Positions 25,820-36,804 of a DNA stretch of 64,000 nt are shown here, one piece after another. Position 1 is the first letter of the stretch; each line of letters begins with the position of its first letter. The translations under genes and the position numbers were made by a program. The stretch spans positions 407,536 through 471,535 of the forward strand of contig JAHPZH010000001.1 of NCBI GenBank assembly GCA_019058315.1, read 5' to 3'. A model generated the notes under the pieces. It was not told where the DNA came from. It saw only the letters and a list, made by a program, of their open reading frames with translations, and ran no database searches. The stretch comes from Candidatus Helarchaeota archaeon (GTDB lineage Archaea > Asgardarchaeota > Lokiarchaeia > Helarchaeales > RDOG01).

Positions 25820-26066
25820 GTTTAATCACTAAGTACTGGAATTTTTCATTACCTTTTTTTCTAAAATTTCTTTATCGCTTCTAAAGACTCAATAACTCCC
25901 CTTTTTAATAATTTCTAAATAACAATTTCAAATTAATCTCATAATATATTATTAGTAACAAATATTGGAAAAATCTAATATTTCATTTAAAATAATTGGT
26001 GTCAATAAATAAAATTAATAAATTCTTTTTACTTTGTTTGCAAAGATAGAAAATAGGGTTTTGAAA

Positions 26067-27779
26067 ATGGCTAATCTCGTAATAAAAAATGGTATTGTTT
26101 ATGATCCTTTAAATAATATAAATGGCGAAAAGAAAGATATTGCTATAAAAAATGGTATAATTGCAGAAAAAGGAAATGGTGGTAAAGTTATTGACGCTTC
26201 TGGAATGATTATTATGCCAGGAGGAGTAGATATTCACTCCCATATCGCTGGCTCTAAAGTAAACTCTGGTCGTTTTCTGAGACCCGAAGATCATCGAAAA
26301 GAGGGTATTAAGAAAACCAAAATTACTCGTTCCGGAACTGGCTACTCGGTCCCTTCGACCTGGGTAACTGGTTACAAATATGCTGTTATGGGGTGGACTA
26401 CAGTGGCTGAACCGGCTACACCTCCGTTAAAAACTAGACATACTCATGAAGAATTTAATGATATACCAATTATTGATAAATGTTGCTTTCCTGTTTTTGG
26501 TAATAATTGGTTTGTTCTTGATTACATAAGTGAAGGTGATATGGATAAATTAGCGGCATATATTGCTTGGCTCTTACGTGCTTGTAAAGGTTATGCTGTA
26601 AAATTAGTTAACCCTGGAGGAGTTGAAAATTGGGGTTGGGGTAAAAATGTAGATTCATTGGATGATATGGTTCTACATTTTGAAGTTACACCACGTCAAA
26701 TAATTAATTCTTTAGGAGAAGCTAATGAGAGGTTAGGACTCCCTCACACAATACATGTTCATGGAAATAACCTTGGCCATCCTGGCGTTTATAAGATTAC
26801 TAAAGAAACTTTCAAAGCAGTACAAGGAATGAAATCTCACAAAAGTAGGAAGACATTTATGCATTTCACACATCTTCATTTCAATGCTTATGGTGGAACT
26901 GGTTGGAAGGACTTTGGTTCTGAGGCTGCAGAATTGGCGGATTATCTTAACCAACATGACAATATATCATTTGACGTAGGGCAAGCAATATACGGTGATA
27001 CGACTACAATGACGGGTGACGGACCTTGGGAATACGCTTTGCAAGGGATCGTCTCTGCCATGGGTTGGGGCACTAAAGGTGGCTTTAAATGGATTAATGG
27101 ACAAGTTGAAGCGGAATGTGGCTCTGGTGTGGTTCCATATATCTTTTCACCAAAGAACCCTGTAAATGCTGTTCAATGGGCAATAGGCCTTGAATTAATG
27201 CTTCATTTTAAAGATCCATGGAGATCATTTCTTACAAGTGATCACCCTAATGGTGGTCCATTTGTCAATTATCCAAATGTAATCTCATGGTTAATGAGCA
27301 AAGAAGCACGAAAAGAACTTCTTGGGAAGTCTCATAAAAACGCTACTCAAAAAACAACTTTAGGAGATCTTGATCGTGAATATACTCTTAATGAAATCTG
27401 TATTATTACACGTGCAGGTACTGCAAAATGCCTTGGGATGACAAATAAAGGACACTTGGGAGTTGGTGCAACTGGAGATATTGCAATTTATAATCTAACT
27501 CCAGAAGAGAAAGATCCGAAAAAAATTGCGAAAGCTTTTTCTCAAGCTGCCTATACAATAAAAGACGGAGTAATTGTCGCAAAAGATGGGGAAATTATTG
27601 TAGCTCCTATGGGCCAAATTATCTGGAATGATGTTAAACTACCCAAAAATATAGAAAACGCATTGATGGAAGATTTAAAAAAGAAATGGAGTGCATATTA
27701 TTCTGTAAATCTAGCTAATTATCCCATTGAAGAACATGAATTAATCAATTCAGCTCCAATAACTATTAATGCGAAATAA
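26067..27779 (+). CDS. fwdA: Formylmethanofuran dehydrogenase subunit A
   Basis: GGVDIHSHIAG.KVN.GR..RPEDH, KLVNPGG, HVHGNNLG.PG, TSDHPNGGPF. Confidence 0.95.
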   Translation: MANLVIKNGIVYDPLNNINGEKKDIAIKNGIIAEKGNGGKVIDASGMIIMPGGVDIHSHIAGSKVNSGRFLRPEDHRKEGIKKTKITRSGTGYSVPSTWVTGYKYAVMGWTTVAEPATPPLKTRHTHEEFNDIPIIDKCCFPVFGNNWFVLDYISEGDMDKLAAYIAWLLRACKGYAVKLVNPGGVENWGWGKNVDSLDDMVLHFEVTPRQIINSLGEANERLGLPHTIHVHGNNLGHPGVYKITKETFKAVQGMKSHKSRKTFMHFTHLHFNAYGGTGWKDFGSEAAELADYLNQHDNISFDVGQAIYGDTTTMTGDGPWEYALQGIVSAMGWGTKGGFKWINGQVEAECGSGVVPYIFSPKNPVNAVQWAIGLELMLHFKDPWRSFLTSDHPNGGPFVNYPNVISWLMSKEARKELLGKSHKNATQKTTLGDLDREYTLNEICIITRAGTAKCLGMTNKGHLGVGATGDIAIYNLTPEEKDPKKIAKAFSQAAYTIKDGVIVAKDGEIIVAPMGQIIWNDVKLPKNIENALMEDLKKKWSAYYSVNLANYPIEEHELINSAPITINAK

Positions 27780-27948: not shown

Positions 27949-30900
27949 ATGAAAAGACGGAATTTTATGCTCTTTTTAGTTTTATTAGTATCAATTTTAT
28001 TTATCAGTACACCATTCAATTCAATAATTTCAGAAAATAATTTTAAATCACCCATATGGTTTAATAATCCAAAAAATTCGGAAAAGGCACAAAAACCTCC
28101 AGAAATTGAACCTATAACAGATAATAAAGGTTTATTGGAATCCAAAGGTAATCAAGAATCAGGTGACGTACCAGATCAACCAAATGAGTTTACAGGACAA
28201 AATGCTACAAATGCAATAATTGAATTTAATAATTCTTTTTCAAGCTACCAGACTGATCCTTATGCATTATTTACTGATCTTGGAGATATTAATATTCCAA
28301 CAAATGGATTTAATATCACATATTCTAATCTGACATTTTTCAATATAATAACTCAAGGATATTACCAAGATGTAGAAACTGAATCAGGAGCTGGAGGGGC
28401 TCTAGGTGGAGGACAATTGCCATATATAAATCCCGCAAACGGGACAATAACCGGCGATCCTTACGTGATGTCTCTCGAGATAGAACATGGATTTATTTCA
28501 TATATTGCTGGTTTAGAACTAAACCTTAGATGCCCTAATATTGGGGCCCTAATTTTTTGTATTGTTCTAAATTCAACATTTAATCCTTTATCTCTTCAGA
28601 TAGAACCTCATTCACTGGCCGAAGGAGCGTTTTTTGGTTACTACTCTGGAATAGGTTGGCATTGGGTGGTTTTTAGTGGCTCTGGATTTTTAAATACTTA
28701 TGATACTTTTAATAATACTTTCTTCATTATGCCTGGAGTCGTAGATGAAACTCATACTACTAAAGTATATTGGGACTATGTTTACGACTCAGCAGTTACG
28801 GATGGAGATGGAGATGATGAAGGTTTAGCTTATCAGTATAATCTAGGATTGTGGAACCTTCTTCCTATCGATTTCTGTGTGAGAAAAGTTAATATCACTG
28901 GATGTGTACCTCCACCTGAACAAATAGATATGCGAATAAATGGAACACCGTTAACTAATGGTCCTATATTATATGGTAATGTTACAGAAGATATAGAAAT
29001 CTTTGCATTTTCGACCAATTATTTCAATAATACATTTTTAAATGGTGCATCTGGAGAGATTTTTTATGATATAACAACTAATTGGTCTTCTTATGGTAGA
29101 TCTTCCTACATAGTTTTTATGTTAAATGCGACTGGTGGATTTGAAAATCAAACTCACGCTATCACAAGATGTCATGCCACTGCAGGAAATCCGATCGTTA
29201 ATTGGAATGCCACTTTACAGGGAACATACTTCCCTAAAGGTGCTTATGATAAAAAGATTAATGTAACAATCCCGCAATCATGGAATGTTAGTGAGGTTTA
29301 TGAAAATAGTACTAGTATAAATTCTACAATTATTACTAAAGCCCCCTATAAATTTGTAAATATCAACGCAACTGCAAATGGTACTTGGAACATTATATGT
29401 AATGGAACTAATTTTGCGGGAGATGTTCATGTATATAATAACACACCACCTTTCTTAGAGGCTTATAGTTATTTTCTAAATGATACTATAAAAGTAAATG
29501 GGTCAATCTATACTAATTCACCTGTCAAAGCAGAATTAACTGTTTTTAATCCTAATAATCACACGGTACATACTGATCAAGCAGATTTAATTAATGAGGT
29601 TGCAAGTTTTACCCCCTGGTGGATATTTGACAACTCAACCAATAATGGTACTCATCTTCTTAGGGTAGTATGGTTTAATGGAACTGAAGTTGGAATTAAT
29701 ATAGCAAATATTACTTGTATTAATGAACCTACAAATTTAACAGTGACAAATGGACCAGATCCTGAAATAGTTATTCAAGGTGACATAGTTACTGCTCGGA
29801 TATTTTATAACGATACATATGATGATAGAGGAATTTCTGGAGCGATTATTAAAAGTAACTGGAGTTATTCACCTTTAAATCCGATTGATTGGTTAAATGG
29901 TTCATATAATATAACATTCATAACCGGATTTGCTCCTAAAGGCAATTATACAATCATAATTAATACCACAAAAAACGGTTATGACACTGCTACAACTATA
30001 ATTAAATTTAATGTGACTTTATTGGTAGTTTTAGAACCTACCGAACTGAAAATTGTGAGGAGTATTCCATTCACTCTTGAAGATATGTATGTCAATGATA
30101 CAGGCAAATATGCAATAGTAAATTATACTTTTCTAGTAAATGGAAGTGGTATTAAAGGTGCAGATATTATGACCGACCCGGATTGGACGGAACCATATTT
30201 TCAATATGAAGACTTATCATTGGGGAACACCTCACTAAAGGGTCTATATAAAATTTGGCTCGATACTACAGGTACTCATGCAAATGAATTTCATAATATT
30301 AGATTTTTTGCAACAAAACCTGGATTTGAACCAAGTGAAGTTATTTCTTCATTATTTCAAATTCACCCAATCCCAACTGATATTGATGTTACGGGATATG
30401 AAAATATTACAAAATTTGAAGGTGAAATAGTGGACTTAGCAGCTTGTTATAAGGATAATTATCATGCTGGAAAGCCTGCTATAATAAATGCGAATGTAAA
30501 TTGGACGATTAATACTTCAACTCCTGAAAGTGGGGATATGGAATTGGTTATTTTAATATATCAAGGAACGATTAATTTACCCGAACTCGAGGTGCTTCCA
30601 GGAGTCTATAATGTAACTATCAAAGCAGAAGCTCCAGATTTTAAACCATATTCAAAAAATATTACTCTTAATGTATTGTCAAAGTGGAGTTCGCTTATTA
30701 TAATCACTAATTATTCCTCATACTCTCAAACCGAAATTAGAGTGGGTAAAGATGTCACAATAGAAGCAGAAATTGAATTCGGTAACACCTCAATCGAACG
30801 TGAAGGGCGAAAATTGAATTATGAAATAGAATATTCCAATGGGTTTCATATTGAAGATACTAGGAATACTAATGAAAATGGAACAACATTTTTCTTAATA

Positions 30901-33117
30901 AATCCAATTCCAAATATTAGATGGATAAATGTAACCGTTTCTTATGATGGAACTCCACAAATCAACGCAACATCCTCTAATCTACTTATAATTGTTTTAG
31001 GGAAATTTGAGACTAATCTAACTATAAATGATTTGGGAATGGCATCCTACTTTATTAGCAGTGAAGAGTTTTCTATTAATGCAACGTTAGAATATAATAA
31101 ATCTAATATATGGACTCCTATGCGGGGTGCAACTATTGAATTTATCATAGATTATAAAGATTATCAAGATGAAAACTTCATAACCACAACAAATGATGAC
31201 GGTATAGCTATTCTCGAGCACAATCCTCACGAAGGAGCATCCTCAATCATAATTAGAGCAAAATATCTTGGTAATATTTCCTTTTTCAGTACCAACGATA
31301 ATACAACTTCCTTCAAGATTACCAAATATAATGTCACTCTTCAAATCTTCGATATAAATCCAATCGAATTAATGATAGGCAATCCAATGATTTTATCATG
31401 TAAATTAAAATATTCAGAGACTGGAATTCCAATCTCAAATGCAACAGTTACATTTTTTGTGTATCTGGGTGATTCAAATCTAAGAATATTTGAGCAAAGT
31501 GCAGTTACAGATAAAGATGGAGTGGCTTTCACTGCATTAATATTACTTCAACCATTCGAAGCTCTTCCTCTTATTACAGTTGGAGTAGAATATGAAGGAG
31601 ATGAAAGTACGTTTAGTTCTACTACCACGTCTCCACTACCTACAATTCCAATGACTACTGCGAAATATTTCACTAATTATATAAATGAGAACTGGTGGTG
31701 GATGGCAATTATTATTGGAGCAGTTATTGCCATTTCTCTCGCATATAGATATGGAGTGAAATTGCCCCGTCGCCGTCGTGAAATAGCATTACAAAAGAAG
31801 ATTGCTAATAAAGTCAAGGATGCGCAAAATCTTAAACATTGCATTATCCTCGAGAAAAATTCAGGAGCGTCAATCTTTGATCAAGGGTTTGGGGATATAG
31901 ATTTGGACTCAGATCTAATTTCTGGCTTTTTAACAGCGATTTCCGCATTTCAGACCGAGATAGCTATTAAAGGGAAGAAAAAAGATGAAGCTACAGGCGG
32001 TTTTGAATTAAATTATGCAGATTTTAAAATATTATTAACAGATGGTGAGTTATCACGTTTTGCATTTATATTACAAGATAAACCAAGCGATAGTTTCCGT
32101 AGCGTTGCACAAGAGACTGTGAATCAATTTGAGGGTGATTATCGTTCCTACCTTATAGATTGGGATGGTGCTGTAAAACCTTTTGGAACTGCAAATCGTC
32201 TACTGGCAAGTAAATTTGAAATAGGGTTAAGTCAAGCTTTGAGAGTAAAAAAATTAAGTGAAAAAGAAATGAAACATCTTTCGGATTTATCAGCTGCTTT
32301 AGTCAGAATCGCAAAAAGTCAGCAACAACAAAAAAGCGGTAAATTTTTCGTTAATGACATAATGCAAATAGCTGTACAAGCTAGAAAAGAACCTGATTAC
32401 GAAATTTATTATGAAATTTACAATCTTTATAAGAATAGGATTCTAATACCAACTTCTAGAAAGGAGGCGTTGGTGGCTGCTAAAGAAATTATAACTCAAT
32501 TTCCTCCTCCTGAAGAAAAAAAGGTTAAAGAAGATACAATTAAGAAGGAATCAAAGTTAATAAAAGGAATTTATGTATCCGACTTAATTGATGAAGAATA
32601 TGAGAGATTAAGGCAAGAGATGGAATCTATGAGTCCAGCATACCAAAAAATATTTCAGAACGAAATTATGTTTTCTCCAGACGACAAAAGGACTGAAACC
32701 GTAAAAAAAATGTTAAGTAAAAGAGAAAAACTACAAAAAAAATTGAACAATAATCTCTTGGACATAGAAAATCTATCAAACAAAGAAACTCCATCCTATT
32801 CCGAGATATTTCAAAAAATGGAGGATAACAAAAGAATTTATGAGGATCTTGGAAACGAAGAAAAAGCTTTAATCACAGCTATGGAAATTCAAAAAGTTTT
32901 AGAAAAATTTGAGAGTGTAAATGAAATTAAAAGCTTGAGAGTTGACTTATCTAATATTACATCACAAGCGAAAGAGGCAAATGAAAACCAAGAATTCCTA
33001 AAAGCCGCAATATTATATAGGAAAGCTGCAAGGATATATGTTGAATTCGGAAATTTTGAAGATGCCGAAAAATTAGGTGAAATAGCAAGCTATACCGAAC
33101 AAAAATTTACGAATTAA
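27949..33117 (+). CDS. 1722-aa single-pass surface protein: Ig-like ectodomain, TM, cytoplasmic longin-like domain, helical C-terminal domain
   Basis: Signal peptide; ~1200 aa beta-rich with many N-x-S/T sequons; TM WWWMAIIIGAVIAISLAY then RRRR; IILEKNSGASIF..DSDLISGFLTAISAF..ELNYADFKILL.DG. Confidence 0.85.
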   Translation: MKRRNFMLFLVLLVSILFISTPFNSIISENNFKSPIWFNNPKNSEKAQKPPEIEPITDNKGLLESKGNQESGDVPDQPNEFTGQNATNAIIEFNNSFSSYQTDPYALFTDLGDINIPTNGFNITYSNLTFFNIITQGYYQDVETESGAGGALGGGQLPYINPANGTITGDPYVMSLEIEHGFISYIAGLELNLRCPNIGALIFCIVLNSTFNPLSLQIEPHSLAEGAFFGYYSGIGWHWVVFSGSGFLNTYDTFNNTFFIMPGVVDETHTTKVYWDYVYDSAVTDGDGDDEGLAYQYNLGLWNLLPIDFCVRKVNITGCVPPPEQIDMRINGTPLTNGPILYGNVTEDIEIFAFSTNYFNNTFLNGASGEIFYDITTNWSSYGRSSYIVFMLNATGGFENQTHAITRCHATAGNPIVNWNATLQGTYFPKGAYDKKINVTIPQSWNVSEVYENSTSINSTIITKAPYKFVNINATANGTWNIICNGTNFAGDVHVYNNTPPFLEAYSYFLNDTIKVNGSIYTNSPVKAELTVFNPNNHTVHTDQADLINEVASFTPWWIFDNSTNNGTHLLRVVWFNGTEVGINIANITCINEPTNLTVTNGPDPEIVIQGDIVTARIFYNDTYDDRGISGAIIKSNWSYSPLNPIDWLNGSYNITFITGFAPKGNYTIIINTTKNGYDTATTIIKFNVTLLVVLEPTELKIVRSIPFTLEDMYVNDTGKYAIVNYTFLVNGSGIKGADIMTDPDWTEPYFQYEDLSLGNTSLKGLYKIWLDTTGTHANEFHNIRFFATKPGFEPSEVISSLFQIHPIPTDIDVTGYENITKFEGEIVDLAACYKDNYHAGKPAIINANVNWTINTSTPESGDMELVILIYQGTINLPELEVLPGVYNVTIKAEAPDFKPYSKNITLNVLSKWSSLIIITNYSSYSQTEIRVGKDVTIEAEIEFGNTSIEREGRKLNYEIEYSNGFHIEDTRNTNENGTTFFLINPIPNIRWINVTVSYDGTPQINATSSNLLIIVLGKFETNLTINDLGMASYFISSEEFSINATLEYNKSNIWTPMRGATIEFIIDYKDYQDENFITTTNDDGIAILEHNPHEGASSIIIRAKYLGNISFFSTNDNTTSFKITKYNVTLQIFDINPIELMIGNPMILSCKLKYSETGIPISNATVTFFVYLGDSNLRIFEQSAVTDKDGVAFTALILLQPFEALPLITVGVEYEGDESTFSSTTTSPLPTIPMTTAKYFTNYINENWWWMAIIIGAVIAISLAYRYGVKLPRRRREIALQKKIANKVKDAQNLKHCIILEKNSGASIFDQGFGDIDLDSDLISGFLTAISAFQTEIAIKGKKKDEATGGFELNYADFKILLTDGELSRFAFILQDKPSDSFRSVAQETVNQFEGDYRSYLIDWDGAVKPFGTANRLLASKFEIGLSQALRVKKLSEKEMKHLSDLSAALVRIAKSQQQQKSGKFFVNDIMQIAVQARKEPDYEIYYEIYNLYKNRILIPTSRKEALVAAKEIITQFPPPEEKKVKEDTIKKESKLIKGIYVSDLIDEEYERLRQEMESMSPAYQKIFQNEIMFSPDDKRTETVKKMLSKREKLQKKLNNNLLDIENLSNKETPSYSEIFQKMEDNKRIYEDLGNEEKALITAMEIQKVLEKFESVNEIKSLRVDLSNITSQAKEANENQEFLKAAILYRKAARIYVEFGNFEDAEKLGEIASYTEQKFTN

Positions 33118-33137
33118 CTTGACTTTTATGAAATTCC

Positions 33138-33148
33138 TTTTTTTTTTT
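33138..33148 (+). terminator. Oligo-T tract, probable terminator
   Basis: T11 about 20 nt after the stop at 33117. Confidence 0.5.
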
Positions 33149-33288
33149 AATCAAAATTAATTATTTTCATGTAAATTTTTTAAAAGAATTAGAGGAAAAT
33201 AATATTATTCTAAATTTTTTAAATTATTTGAAACTATATTTTATAGTAGAAAATATAATATAAATTAATTAAATAAAATATAATTGGG

Positions 33289-34740
33289 ATGATAATGGAG
33301 AATATTAGAGATCCAAATGAAAAAAATGTAATTAGTAATTTAACGAAATATTTTGAATTAGAAACAACAGATTTTGAGGTTAATGAGAACGGAAACGTAG
33401 TCATACTCGATTTACATTGCGCAGATTTAGAAGATATTCCAAAAATAATTAGTGATCTTCCTCATTTAGAGGTAATACATTTACATGGAACAAAAATCAA
33501 GACGATAGAGGGATTAGATAAATTTCCAAATTTGGAAGAATTACATATATATGGTAATCAAATCAAAAAAATCAAGGGATTGGAGAATCTCTCTCAATTA
33601 AAAATAATAAATTTAGCGTATAATCAAATTAATAAGATAGAGGGGCTAGATAATCTCTCTCAATTACAGAAATTATTTTTAGAAGGCAATGAAATTAGTA
33701 AAATTGAGAATTTAGAACCCCTAGCTCAATTAAAAGTATTACGACTTGAAGCTAACAAAATTAAGAAAATTGAAGGAATAGGATCTCTTGCTTTACTACA
33801 AGAATTAGATCTATCTGACAATAAAATCGGGAAAATCGAAGGTCTAGAAAATGTTCCTTTACTTAGAACATTAAATCTTAGATTAAATGAGATTCAGAAA
33901 ATTGAAGGATTAGAACATCTGTCTCAATTAAAAACCTTGGACTTAAGAGTAAATTCGATTAAAAAGATAGAAGGCTTAGAAAAACTCACTCAATTAAAGA
34001 CATTGGATCTTAGACTTAATAAAATCACTAAATTAGAAGGATTAGATAATTGTACCCAATTAAAAAATTTAAGATTAGACAAAGAAAATTTAAGTGTGGC
34101 AGATCAAGTTTCATATGAAAAAGGAATAGCTGAAGCAACTGGACAAGTTCAACAAGGAGTAGCTGGAGTCGCTGGTCAAGTAACAGAGGAAATTCCAGCA
34201 GAAATCCATATTCCTAAACTAAAATTTGAGGAAGAAGATTTATTTAAAAAAGCATTACAATCAATGAGTGCAACCAACCAAAACCTATTGAAAAAAGAAA
34301 TTTTAGCAACACCAGATAATAAACGTGCATCTATAGTGAGAACTCTACTTAAGAGTAGAAAAAAATTAGATAAAGCACTTGAAACTAATGTTTCTGAAAT
34401 CGAAAAACTATTAAAAAAGAAAAAACCTCCATTAGAACAAATATTTCAAAAAATGGAAGCTTCAAAATCAATTTATGAAGAACTTGGAAATGAAGATAAA
34501 GCACAATCAACAGCTATGGAAATTGAAAAAATATTGAACAAATTCGATTCTATTTTAATAAAGAAAGAATTGAGTCGCGATGCAGCATTCAAAATAAAGG
34601 AAGCTAAAGCTGCGCTAAGCCGTAAAGATAATATAAAAGCAGCATTACTTTACAGAGATGCAGCCCGCTTATTTTTAGAAATAGGAAATCATGAACAAGC
34701 TGAGTTACTGAGACAAGATAGTATTAATTGTGAAGGTTGA
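33289..34740 (+). CDS. SDS22-type leucine-rich-repeat protein with C-terminal helical domain
   Basis: About ten 22-aa repeats L..L.L..N.I.KIEGLE.L.Q. C-terminus homologous to that of the upstream gene. Confidence 0.9.
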   Translation: MIMENIRDPNEKNVISNLTKYFELETTDFEVNENGNVVILDLHCADLEDIPKIISDLPHLEVIHLHGTKIKTIEGLDKFPNLEELHIYGNQIKKIKGLENLSQLKIINLAYNQINKIEGLDNLSQLQKLFLEGNEISKIENLEPLAQLKVLRLEANKIKKIEGIGSLALLQELDLSDNKIGKIEGLENVPLLRTLNLRLNEIQKIEGLEHLSQLKTLDLRVNSIKKIEGLEKLTQLKTLDLRLNKITKLEGLDNCTQLKNLRLDKENLSVADQVSYEKGIAEATGQVQQGVAGVAGQVTEEIPAEIHIPKLKFEEEDLFKKALQSMSATNQNLLKKEILATPDNKRASIVRTLLKSRKKLDKALETNVSEIEKLLKKKKPPLEQIFQKMEASKSIYEELGNEDKAQSTAMEIEKILNKFDSILIKKELSRDAAFKIKEAKAALSRKDNIKAALLYRDAARLFLEIGNHEQAELLRQDSINCEG

Positions 34741-34830: not shown

Positions 34831-36804
34831 ATGCCTTTCAAACTTTACGCTAATTATAAACCAACAGGAGATCAGCCCGATGCTATTCAAGGGTTGATCG
34901 AGGGTTTAAATAAAAATTATAAATACCAAACATTATTGGGAGTTACAGGAAGCGGAAAAACTTTTACTATGGCAAATATTATAGAGAAAATGCAACGCCC
35001 CACCATAGTTATTTCTCATAATAAAACTTTAGCGGCACAATTATATAGAGAGTTTAAAGAATACTTTCCAAAAAATGCTGTGGAGTATTTCGTTTCTTAT
35101 TATAGTTATTTTCAGCCAGAAGCATACATTCCAAGAACTGATACTTATATTGAAAAAGATTCTTCTATTAATGAAGAAATTGACAAAATGAGACTTTCAG
35201 CGACTGTTGCCCTTTCTACCAGAAGGGATGTTATCATTGTCGCTTCCGTCAGCTGCATATATGGTTTGGGATCTCCGGAGAACTATGGGAAACTCACCCT
35301 TAATTTAACTAAAGGTGAAGAAAAAGAAAGAAGCTTTTTAATAAAACAATTAGTAGAAATACAATATGATAGAAATGATATAGCATTTGAAAGGGGCAAA
35401 TTTAGAGTTCGTGGTGACACTATTGATATATTTCCCTCCTATTATGGAAACAAAGCAATAAGAGTAGAATTTTTTGGAGATGAGATTGAACAAATTTCTG
35501 AGATAGATGTATTGAAGGGAGAAATAATAACTAAATTAGACAAAGCCATTATTTTTCCAGCACGTCATTATGTTATCCCTAATGAAAATGTTGATGATGC
35601 AATTAAAGGAATTGAAAAAGAATTAGAAATTCGTTTAAAAGAACTCAAAAGTAATAATAAATTGCTGGAAGCTCAAAGATTAGAGCAAAGAACAAAATTT
35701 GACCTCGAAATGATTAAAGAAACTGGGTTCTGCTCTGGTGTGGAGAATTATTCTCTCTATTTCAGTAATAGAAAACCAGGATCACCTCCATATACATTAT
35801 TGGACTTTTTTCCAAATGATTATTTAATGTTTATAGATGAAAGTCATGTATCAATTCCTCAAATTCGTGGAATGTACTTCGGGGACAAATCTCGTAAAGA
35901 TAGTTTAATTGAATATGGATTTAGGTTGCCTTCTGCATGGGACAACCGTCCTCTTAAGTTTGACGAATTTGTTGAACACGTTAATCAAGTAATCTTCGTT
36001 TCAGCAACTCCTGCCGATTTCGAATTGAATAAAAGTCAACAAATTGCTGAATTAATAGTTCGTCCAACCGGTTTAATAGAGCCAGAAGTAATCGTTAGAC
36101 CTATAAAGGGACAGATTGATGATGTTGTTTCTGAAATCAAGAAAAGGGTTGAAAAGAACGAAAGGGTTTTAGTTACAACCCTAACTAAGAGGATGGCAGA
36201 GGAACTTACTGATTATATTAGAGACCTAAAAATTAATGCTAGATATTTGCATTCTGAAATTGACACAATTGAAAGAACGGAAATTCTTCGAGGTTTGCGT
36301 TTAGGGACTAAACAAGGAGGATTCGATGCTTTAATAGGTATTAATTTATTGAGAGAAGGTCTTGATCTGCCCGAAGTATCTCTCGTTTGTATTTTAGATG
36401 CGGATAAACCTGGTTATCTAAGGTCTGAAATGGCGTTAATACAGACTGCGGGACGTGCTTCTCGTAATCTTAATGGACAAGTTATTATGTATGCTGATGA
36501 TATATCAAGTGCTATGGAAGCAGCAATAAACGAAATAACTAGAAGAAGACAAAAACAGATAGATTATAATAAAAAGTATGACATAAAACCGAGAACCATT
36601 GTTAAACCAATCCAAGATATCCTCTATTCTGTTCCTAAAGTAGAACGATTTAAACCTCAAAAAATGTCTCCACAAGAAATTCTGAAGACCGTATCCCAAT
36701 TAGAAACAGATATGAGATATTATGCTGATAATTTAGAATTTGAGAAAGCTGCACTTATCCGGGATAAGATTATTCAATTGAAAGATCATTTAAAAAGAAA
36801 ATAA
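34831..36804 (+). CDS. uvrB: Excinuclease ABC subunit B
   Basis: [40 protein letters not shown]-terminal UVR motif. Confidence 0.98.

Follow-up and report, generated by a model that had tools for sequence, protein, structure and literature searches.

The window, a 64,000-nucleotide stretch of DNA from a Candidatus Helarchaeota archaeon, contains a gene for a giant type-I surface protein followed by a gene for a cytosolic SDS22-like LRR protein (Table 1). LRR proteins and longin-bearing membrane proteins have both undergone large expansions in Asgard genomes that lack an explanation, and the function of the Asgard LRR proteins was stated to be unresolved in a 2026 preprint (10.64898/2026.10.28.762692). 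An initial annotation of this DNA had described the first protein as an ectodomain, a transmembrane helix and a longin domain and the second as cytosolic SDS22-type repeats, and had proposed that both end in one unrecognised domain. Both open reading frames are present as it had described them, and the analyses below confirm its observations and support its interpretation in part.

Features of the giant gene and its LRR neighbour

The giant protein runs from a signal-like N-terminus through a sequon-rich ectodomain (3.5 N-x-S/T sequons per 100 aa) and a single transmembrane helix to a cytoplasmic longin, winged helix, linker and tail. Using a Kyte-Doolittle scan, we found hydrophobic segments at aa 4-22 and aa 1252-1270; orthologues are 1336-1720 aa long. 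In the AF2 model, the juxtamembrane domain has the topology b-b-a-b-b-b-a and Foldseek matched it to LAMTOR2/3, AP sigma, MglB and Sec22b (probability 1.0, E ~1e-3, target TM 0.5-0.69), which gives it, in the model, a longin/roadblock fold. Modelled together, the whole cytoplasmic module, in which the tail comes after a disordered linker, reached a pTM of 0.48, which argues against a fixed packing of its domains.

Table 1. Features of the two genes, numbered from the first nucleotide of the window (WH, winged helix).
Feature	Position	Strand	Basis
Giant type-I surface protein gene, 1722 aa	27949..33117	+	ORF, translation
TM helix of giant, aa 1252-1270, then KLPRRRRE stop-transfer stretch	31702..31758	+	Kyte-Doolittle scan, sequence
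Predicted longin/roadblock-fold domain of giant, aa 1295-1403	31831..32157	+	AF2 topology, Foldseek
Winged-helix-like region of giant, aa 1446-1501, end of longin-WH module	32284..32451	+	AF2 secondary structure
Disordered linker tethering giant's tail, aa 1518-1537	32500..32559	+	AF2 pLDDT <50
Tail domain of giant, aa 1541-1722: two-helix cap and two three-helix units	32569..33114	+	BLASTP, profile match, dN/dS
Last three helices of giant's tail, aa 1655-1718, generic TPR/MIT-like unit	32911..33102	+	'last3' profile hmmsearch; VIA
T11 tract, probable archaeal oligo-T terminator	33138..33148	+	21 nt 3' of giant's stop
Gene for cytosolic SDS22-like LRR protein with captured tail, 483 aa	33289..34740	+	ORF, Pfam
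LRR module, aa 1-285	33289..34143	+	Pfam, phmmer envelope
Linker of LRR protein, aa 271-305, near-neutral evolution	34099..34203	+	dN/dS
Tail domain of LRR protein, aa 306-483	34204..34737	+	BLASTP, AF2, dN/dS
Last three helices of LRR-protein tail, aa 420-483, generic TPR/MIT-like unit	34546..34737	+	profile search, VIA, hhalign

The giant gene ends in a TAA codon at 33115-33117. Oligo-T termination is established in archaea, and on this basis the T11 tract between the genes is a probable terminator; it is compatible with the separate transcripts that had been suggested from it. A T9 tract occupies the equivalent site in a relative (L041). Scanning the intergenic region for sigma-70 promoters and hairpin terminators is uninformative for an archaeon.

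The N-terminal part of the 483-aa protein scores above the curated thresholds of the Pfam LRR models (LRR_4, 128 bits against a cut-off of 27, E 8e-38; LRR_8, 92.5 bits; LRR_9, 60.7 bits), and a Kyte-Doolittle scan found no TM-like segment in it. The genome has 43 such LRR paralogues, this one included. The close paralogues carry other C-termini, either Hypoth_Ymh/HEPN (E 9e-30) or CN_hydrolase-like or nuclease-like, and exchange of C-terminal domains is common in this family. Elsewhere in the genome, genes for an LRR protein, for a tandem-MIT protein and for a protein with longin-like plus ubiquitin-like parts stand in one row.

The shared tail domain

BLASTP aligned giant residues 1541-1709 with LRR-protein residues 306-474 without gaps (75/169 identities, 44%; 65% positives; E 2e-36), in agreement with the 74/170 identities that the initial annotation had counted by hand. 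The parts N-terminal of the aligned tails show no similarity to each other, as it had also reported. A tail profile matched the giant protein at aa 1536-1718, and 14 positions are invariant across the giant and LRR tail clades and the older giant lineages. The AF2 model of the LRR-protein tail (pLDDT 93.4, pTM 0.87) consists of eight helices without a beta-strand, an all-helical fold with TPR/SNAP-like hairpins of the kind that had been read from the letters. A two-helix cap comes first, and behind it lie two diverged copies, in tandem, of a three-helix TPR/MIT-like unit; hhalign recovered the repeat between helices 3-5 and helices 6-8 (probability 70%, E 4e-5). The alignment and the model indicate that the shared region is one homologous all-alpha domain of ~180 residues, predicted to fold independently.

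In a Pfam search, no model reached its cut-off on the tails, which agrees with the domain having gone unrecognised. Sub-threshold matches to TPR_12, TPR_8 and TPR_2 were found in 6-7 of 14 tails, on the last hairpin only (best E 0.0014), and TPR-clan scores stayed well short of the curated thresholds (15.1 bits where 30.1 are required, for instance). Against solved structures, Foldseek returned a best E of 0.046 at TM <0.4, and the top two VIA matches, BtubC (Z 10.5) and Sec17 (Z 10.2), lie below a noise bar of ~13 for helical proteins. TPR, SNAP, 14-3-3, BtubC and MIT interaction modules head the structural matches, all of them under the score needed to tell one helical bundle from another. 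In the Protein Data Bank, neither the cytoplasmic region nor the tail profile had a significant sequence match (best E 9e-4, to a coiled-coil stretch of a C-type lectin). The ESM Atlas feature search yielded TPR/SNAP-type leads only (best score 0.87, level 0.9), and the structure search gave TM <=0.51 for TPR-type rows.

The resemblance to TPR/SNAP hairpins (TPR clan; alpha-SNAP/Sec17, BtubC) lies in antiparallel hairpins with the pattern A-x-x-Y-x-x-A-A-x-x-x-x-x-x-G-(D/N)-x-x-x-A and, as in TPR repeats, in the tandem occurrence of the last unit in other proteins of the genome. Unlike TPR/SNAP proteins, the tail is built of three-helix rather than two-helix units and its whole-domain TM to solved members is <0.4; unlike TPR, it stays under every Pfam cut-off, and no other place in the genome matches its positions 1-120 (profile search). 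Using hmmsearch with the 'last3' profile, we found the last three helices in at least 12 further ORFs of the genome besides both tails. Among these are three other giant single-pass surface proteins, which carry the unit in their cytoplasmic tails, and a 953-aa protein that contains at least 7 copies. The last three helices are thus a common unit that recurs in tandem in other proteins, as TPR-like repeats do. The initial annotation had held that a generic TPR-like repeat found across unrelated proteins would speak against it; this is true of the C-terminal third, whereas positions 1-120 are unique in the genome.

Tandem MIT domains are known from Vta1/LIP5 and calpain-7, and MIT domains bind MIM helices of ESCRT-III proteins. 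Like the N-terminal domain of Vta1/LIP5 and MIT1-MIT2 of calpain-7, the tail comprises two successive three-helix bundles of ~60 residues each; unlike them, it has no significant match to the MIT model, and its third helix is left unaligned in profile comparison. In its placement, one small domain on the cytoplasmic end of a receptor and on a soluble LRR-containing protein, it recalls the death-fold and TIR adaptors of animal innate immunity. The death-fold adaptor domain is a six-helix bundle of ~90 residues that assembles homotypically, and the TIR domain is an alpha/beta fold with a central parallel beta-sheet. Eight helices make up the ~180-residue tail, which is found in a few genomes rather than as a superfamily; its confident model lacks the beta-strands of a TIR fold, and no death-fold or TIR chain is among the structural matches listed for it.

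Distribution, origin and selection

A single-sequence phmmer search, run exhaustively over 1.84 billion representatives, returned 10 matches: one was a 94-aa piece, one an LRR orthologue, and the rest were orthologues or fragments of the giant protein. Among 400 Asgard genomes, every match to the full-length tail profile falls in the taxonomic order of the window itself; two soluble tail forms occur in related genomes. The longin-WH module without the tail was found by profile search in 383 of the 400 genomes, and 98 ORFs of the window genome have this longin-like domain. Most relatives terminate directly after the winged helix; the tail is a lineage-specific C-terminal addition to a widespread longin-WH module. 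Many Asgard longin-WH matches contain in-frame TAA codons, for which we considered recoding, but the one case opened is a natural stop directly after the winged helix. No further fusion partner appeared when longer proteins were searched by word index with one tail and with the profile, although a negative from such a search is weak evidence. Since the exhaustive search found the giant family and the LRR fusion only, the tail is not a widely used output domain. The initial proposal of one output module attached to two sensors thus holds for a selected, autonomous module on two unrelated proteins and fails for an output domain in wide use; the other fusion partners for which it had suggested a search did not appear in the phmmer or the word-indexed search.

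In the phylogenetic tree, the LRR tails group as one clade (100/98) that lies within the clade of the nearest giant tails (95/93), which points to a single capture of the 3' end of the giant gene by an LRR gene. Linkage of giant and LRR genes is limited to three close genomes, whose LRR proteins are 77-100% identical, and the order amidohydrolase - giant - LRR - UvrB is preserved in two relatives. A duplication in one genome without conserved linkage had been named as evidence against the pairing. The event was indeed a single partial duplication, and linkage is kept in only the three genomes, which weakens the proposed pairing. No giant gene adjoins a more divergent LRR-tail gene (P0009), and no LRR-tail gene was found in either G128 or G126, both of which have giant tails. 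In GCA_048887025 (L041), one of the three linked genomes, an internal deletion of ~600 nt took the giant's linker and tail, while the tail of the adjoining LRR gene is intact; in this genome, at least, the module is no longer common to the two proteins. The deletion was seen in a single contig, and assembly collapse is unlikely as its source because identity between the tails is no more than 44%. The same figure rules out gene conversion between the giant and LRR copies, which was also considered.

The dN/dS ratio is 0.16-0.21 for the LRR-protein tail and 0.20 for the giant tail, compared with 0.20-0.28 for the LRR module and ~0.75-1.4 for the LRR-protein linker (over 30-35 codons). These sequence-based estimates indicate purifying selection on both tails, as strong as that on the LRR repeats.

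Readings of the shared tail

On balance, we lean towards a lineage-specific tail that was captured once by an LRR gene, was retained by selection and serves as a tethered docking module with a shared partner. In this reading, the tail joined, via a flexible linker, the C-terminal end of the cytoplasmic longin-winged-helix module in a giant single-pass glycoprotein family of one order, which the names of the nearest database proteins mark as Helarchaeales-like. In a sub-lineage of that order, the 3' end of the giant gene was partially tandem-duplicated and fused to a member of the large family of cytosolic SDS22-like LRR proteins, giving the downstream gene; purifying selection has since retained both copies of the tail while the LRR-protein linker drifts. 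The homology, confident fold, single origin, narrow distribution and selection described above are the results on which this reading builds. With the interaction modules among the best structural matches, the recurrence of the last unit in other giant tails and the C-terminal domain exchange of the LRR family, we infer a protein-binding role and a shared partner: the tail would most likely be a tethered docking or scaffold module, and a common tail would let the cytoplasmic end of the giant and the soluble LRR protein converge on one partner or one sub-membrane site. The tails, at 44% identity, may also have diverged to different partners. The fusion and linkage are known from a handful of closely related metagenome-assembled genomes, which, together with the inferred nature of the docking role, limits the reach of these findings. 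A receptor-end domain copied onto an LRR protein nevertheless offers a concrete bait for the contacts of Asgard LRR proteins, in a cheap experiment.

The initial annotation had suggested homotypic docking, whereby the LRR-protein tail, in the manner of death-fold or TIR domains, binds the tail of the neighbouring giant and recruits the LRR protein to the cytoplasmic face of the receptor. The genes adjoin in the same orientation with synteny in two relatives, both tails are under purifying selection and carried by flexible linkers, and the 14 positions are invariant in both clades, all of which would suit such an arrangement. However, tandem duplication itself accounts for the adjacency, giant tails predate the LRR fusion and occur in G128 and G126 without an LRR-tail counterpart, and P0009 is unlinked to a giant gene. 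The loss of the giant's tail in GCA_048887025 with the LRR tail kept speaks against obligate tail-to-tail docking of the neighbours, and we now regard homotypic docking as unlikely. Complex prediction from giant-tail and LRR-tail alignments (score 0.00, verdict 'no answer') is evidence neither way. Alternatively, the sharing may be a historical accident of the duplication, each copy serving its own protein, for example through stability, solubility or a different partner, with no joint pathway implied. A single duplication event in a narrow clade, copies of only 44% identity and a giant copy that is dispensable in one relative are in keeping with such a relic, as is domain shuffling into narrow, lineage-specific architectures, which is usual both among Asgard genomes (bioRxiv 10.1101/2020.10.19.343400) and within this LRR family. 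Against it, each copy is under purifying selection of a strength like that on the LRR repeats, and the invariance of the 14 positions across both clades and the older giant lineages suggests a retained common surface; we regard a relic as unlikely.

A tandem MIT-like reader, whose two units would bind helical MIM-type ESCRT-III motifs and couple the glycoprotein and the LRR protein to Asgard ESCRT/Vps4, strikes us as improbable. The last three helices superpose on calpain-7 MIT (Z 10.1, 1.5 A over 61 residues) and on LIP5, spartin, MITD1 and VPS4 (Z 8.2-9.2), but across these superpositions (rmsd 1.5-3.4 A, 56-64 residues) unrelated three-helix proteins score alike and the Z-scores lie inside helical-bundle noise. 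An hhalign comparison with Asgard Vps4 MIT (probability 35%, E 4e-4; reversed control, 8%) spans helices 1-2 only, a pattern common to TPR and MIT. The two tandem unit copies of the tail, the row of LRR, tandem-MIT and longin-like plus ubiquitin-like genes elsewhere in the genome, and published Asgard-specific proteins that join longin, TPR, Ig-like and HTH domains to ESCRT-derived helical domains (PMC11188069) would all fit a reader of this kind. On the other side, the Pfam MIT model (PF04212) has 29 matches genome-wide at E <= 0.1, none of them at the tails (C3:440086-440640 and C3:441721-442272), the sub-threshold Pfam matches of the tails are to TPR models and the neighbourhood has no ESCRT gene. 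Its fuller version, with the glycoprotein as cargo or receptor and the LRR protein as soluble adaptor, both passed to ESCRT/Vps4 through the tail, is very improbable; if true, this version would amount to a forerunner, in prokaryotes, of receptor-adaptor sorting. Vps28-C is an ESCRT-I-derived helical bundle that is joined to longin in some Asgard proteins. A Vps28-C origin of the tail, a lead taken from PMC11188069, found no support: PF03997 (Vps28 C-terminal) gave two weak matches elsewhere in the genome at E <= 1 and none on the tails, and the giant's cytoplasmic module likewise lacked any Vps28-C or steadiness-box signal.

The giant's cytoplasmic module resembles Asgard multidomain longin/roadblock proteins (asCOG Roadblock/LC7; PMC11188069), which are lineage-specific combinations of a longin fold with HTH/winged-helix, Ig-like and TPR-like parts. 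Unlike those proteins, it is the cytoplasmic part of a 1700-aa single-pass glycoprotein, and a neighbouring LRR gene copied its tail. By its tree and a natural deletion, the case documents Asgard architectures arising via local partial duplication.

A common C-terminal domain in two neighbouring genes

Using BLASTP of the C-terminal parts, we found that residues 1541-1709 of the giant surface protein and residues 306-474 of its LRR neighbour align without gaps at 75/169 identical positions (44%, E 2e-36), with no further alignment beyond this single 169-residue block. The shared C-terminal domain (the tail) reported in the initial annotation is thus borne out, as are its descriptions of the N-terminal parts. 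The giant starts with a hydrophobic N-terminus, its ectodomain is rich in sequons (3.5 N-x-S/T per 100 aa), and it has a single internal TM helix (aa 1252-1270), while the LRR protein carries LRR_4, LRR_8 and LRR_9 repeats far above Pfam thresholds and showed no hydrophobic segment when one was looked for. The T11 tract noted between the genes is also present, 21 nt 3' of the giant's stop codon. The flanking genes encode an Amidohydro_3 protein, which from its sequence we take to be formylmethanofuran dehydrogenase subunit A-like, and UvrB; the pair otherwise lies in housekeeping surroundings.

Comparing the window with relatives (Nei-Gojobori), we obtained dN/dS values for the LRR protein of 0.16-0.21 in the tail, 0.20-0.28 in the repeats and roughly 0.75-1.4 in the linker, and for the giant of 0.20 in the tail, 0.10 in the longin-winged-helix (longin-WH) part and 0.20 in the ectodomain. 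On these ratios, both tails are functional parts and not decaying remnants.

Locations of the genes and features discussed (G000, the window's own genome; C, its contigs; L, loci)
Feature	Location	Strand	Description
Amidohydro_3 gene	window 26034-27779
Giant gene	window 27949-33117		1722 aa; co-oriented with LRR gene
T11 tract	window 33138-33148
LRR protein gene	window 33289-34740		483 aa; co-oriented with giant gene
uvrB	window 34831-36804
Region with the deletion, GCA_048887025	L041:840-1083		orthologous to window 32400-33290
LRR paralogue	G000:C1:12901-14097	-	same N-terminal cap, other C-terminus
LRR paralogue	G000:C3:839957-841924	-	same N-terminal cap, other C-terminus
LRR paralogue	G000:C9:20733-22109	+	same N-terminal cap, other C-terminus
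Other giant	G000:C5:1105353-1112846		2497 aa
Other giant	G000:C5:633464-639565		2033 aa
Other giant	G000:C2:81208-85920		1570 aa
P0019	G000:C1:239637-241010; L033:3141-4511	-	457 aa, soluble
Three-gene row	G000:C10:179505-182237 (L096)
Row gene 1			LRR protein, 381 aa
Row gene 2			253 aa; overlaps gene 1 by ~20 nt
Row gene 3			226 aa

Fold and affinities of the tail

An AlphaFold2 model built from an alignment of 14 tails has eight helices and no strands (pLDDT 93.4, pTM 0.87). Folding the giant's whole cytoplasmic region from its own alignment gave, in order, a longin/roadblock domain (topology b-b-a-b-b-b-a), a helical and winged-helix part and, beyond a disordered linker, the tail. The longin/roadblock fold is borne out by Foldseek, with LAMTOR, AP sigma, MglB and Sec22b matched at probability 1.0. 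The region's overall pTM is only 0.48, which indicates that the tail hangs on a tether and is not packed.

Foldseek against solved structures returned nothing convincing for the tail (best E 0.046, TM < 0.4). An exhaustive VIA search gave Z <= 10.5, below the level at which helical bundles become informative; within this limit, the matches listed are interaction modules, with BtubC and Sec17/SNAP spanning helices 3-8, and TPR units and the MIT domains of calpain-7, LIP5, spartin, MITD1 and VPS4 superposing on the final three helices (1.5-3.4 A). By profile comparison, helices 3-5 match helices 6-8 (hhalign probability 70%, E 4e-5), and the two are diverged copies of a single unit. The last unit matches an Asgard Vps4 MIT alignment at 35% probability, with only helices 1-2 aligned; the reversed control reaches 8%. 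Pfam TPR models give sub-threshold matches on the last hairpin in about half of the members, while the Pfam MIT model has no match on the tails. On the basis of these results, we class the tail as a helical repeat domain of TPR/MIT-like type, consisting of a two-helix cap followed by two three-helix units; the name claims resemblance to MIT domains and not membership of that family.

Distribution and origin

Exhaustive phmmer of the LRR protein's tail against 1.84 billion representative proteins yielded just 10 matches: one LRR orthologue, giants or giant C-terminal fragments, and one 94-aa piece. When 400 Asgard genomes were searched with the profile, full-length matches were confined to the window's own order; those outside it were weaker and spanned the last unit only. 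Two soluble forms also emerged from this search: P0024 (503 aa; longin, winged helix and tail without a membrane part), and P0019 with its orthologue P0020 in a sister genus (G128, L034). P0019, a third, divergent carrier in the window's genome, has an N-terminus rich in lysine and glutamate, the latter half of a longin domain, a winged helix and a tail that has diverged.

Within the window's genome (5.8 Mb, 12 contigs), sub-profile searches placed tail positions 1-120 in the two adjacent genes (E 1e-47 each) and nowhere else, while the last three helices matched 12 further ORFs. What the initial annotation said would refute its reading, a generic TPR-like repeat spread across unrelated proteins, is therefore true of the C-terminal third and not of the whole domain. 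The 12 carriers include a 953-aa protein with seven copies of the three-helix unit, several soluble proteins and three other single-pass, sequon-rich giants, with one to several units in the cytoplasmic tail. The giants suggest that units of this kind share a sub-membrane reader or lattice.

Almost all genomes of the phylum have the longin-WH module without the tail (383/400 Asgard genomes), with several copies per genome that lie mostly in 1100-3000-aa ORFs; the one tail-less relative inspected ends directly past the winged helix. In the paralogous 1570-aa giant, longin-WH is followed by three or four generic-unit copies. The tail is therefore a lineage-specific elaboration of TPR-like units behind a widespread module. 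Longin-like domains occur in 98 ORFs of the window's genome, among them dozens of multi-pass membrane proteins of ~355 aa and a ~1120-aa protein family, in both of which the domain forms the very C-terminal end; membrane-anchored longin domains are very greatly expanded in this genome.

Rooted on lysine-rich paralogues, a maximum-likelihood tree of 16 tails unites the four LRR tails in a single clade (support 100/98) nested within that of the nearest giant tails (95/93), and giants from more distant genomes branch outside. The LRR gene therefore acquired its tail once, from the 3' end of the giant gene, most simply by partial tandem duplication, which also explains the adjacency of the two genes. 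The LRR part is one member of a 43-strong paralogue family in this genome, most of whose members are LRR-only. Close paralogues end instead in Hypoth_Ymh/HEPN (E 9e-30), a CN_hydrolase-like domain also found on an AAA_15 ATPase, or a PD-ExK-like (nuclease-like) domain also found on a 409-aa protein; thus, C-terminal domain swapping is usual in the family. Effectors of these types are characteristic of conflict systems.

GCA_013375355 and GCA_048887025 conserve the gene order amidohydrolase, giant, LRR-tail, UvrB, with both flanking genes in place; compared with the window's LRR tail, theirs show 82% and 77% identity, respectively. The more divergent LRR-tail gene P0009 (tail 54% identical) has an unrelated upstream neighbour, not a giant, and the genes downstream of the giants of G128 and G126 are unrelated.

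Candidate partners of the tail

We predict that the tail acts as a tethered protein-binding module, because it is small, stable and all-helical, because a flexible linker attaches it to a receptor-like protein at the cytoplasmic end, and because its type of unit mediates protein contacts elsewhere. Carrying a copy, the soluble LRR protein would be directed to the same partner or site as the giant. Taken together with the evolutionary account, a third protein as this partner is the reading we prefer, slightly more likely than not. The observation of the initial annotation is confirmed, and its interpretation is supported in part.

Binding of the giant's tail to the LRR tail is unlikely. Obligate docking of the neighbours is opposed by the presence of tails long before the LRR fusion and by GCA_048887025, in which the giant gene stops just past the winged helix: the end of the winged-helix coding sequence is fused to the last ~30 nt of tail coding DNA, a ~600-nt internal deletion that removed linker and tail and created an immediate stop, while the tail of the adjacent LRR gene is intact. 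Known from one metagenomic contig, this deletion may be a variant within the population or an artefact of assembly. An ESCRT-III-type helix as partner is more doubtful still.

Asgard archaea are documented to shuffle longin, TPR, LRR and ESCRT-derived domains extensively and in lineage-specific ways (bioRxiv 10.1101/2020.10.19.343400; PMC11188069), and a preprint describes the role of their LRR proteins as unresolved (bioRxiv 10.64898/2026.10.28.762692). The sharing of the tail is not a new type of system; the tail itself is a newly found, Pfam-less helical-repeat module, predicted to mediate interactions, of well-resolved origin. The value of the case lies in an experimental handle, not in breadth.

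Elsewhere in the genome, an LRR gene is followed by one whose product has two genuine MIT domains (48-53 bits) plus a zinc ribbon, and by one encoding an apparent longin-type domain and a C-terminal ubiquitin-like domain, a weak hint that these types cooperate in the organism.
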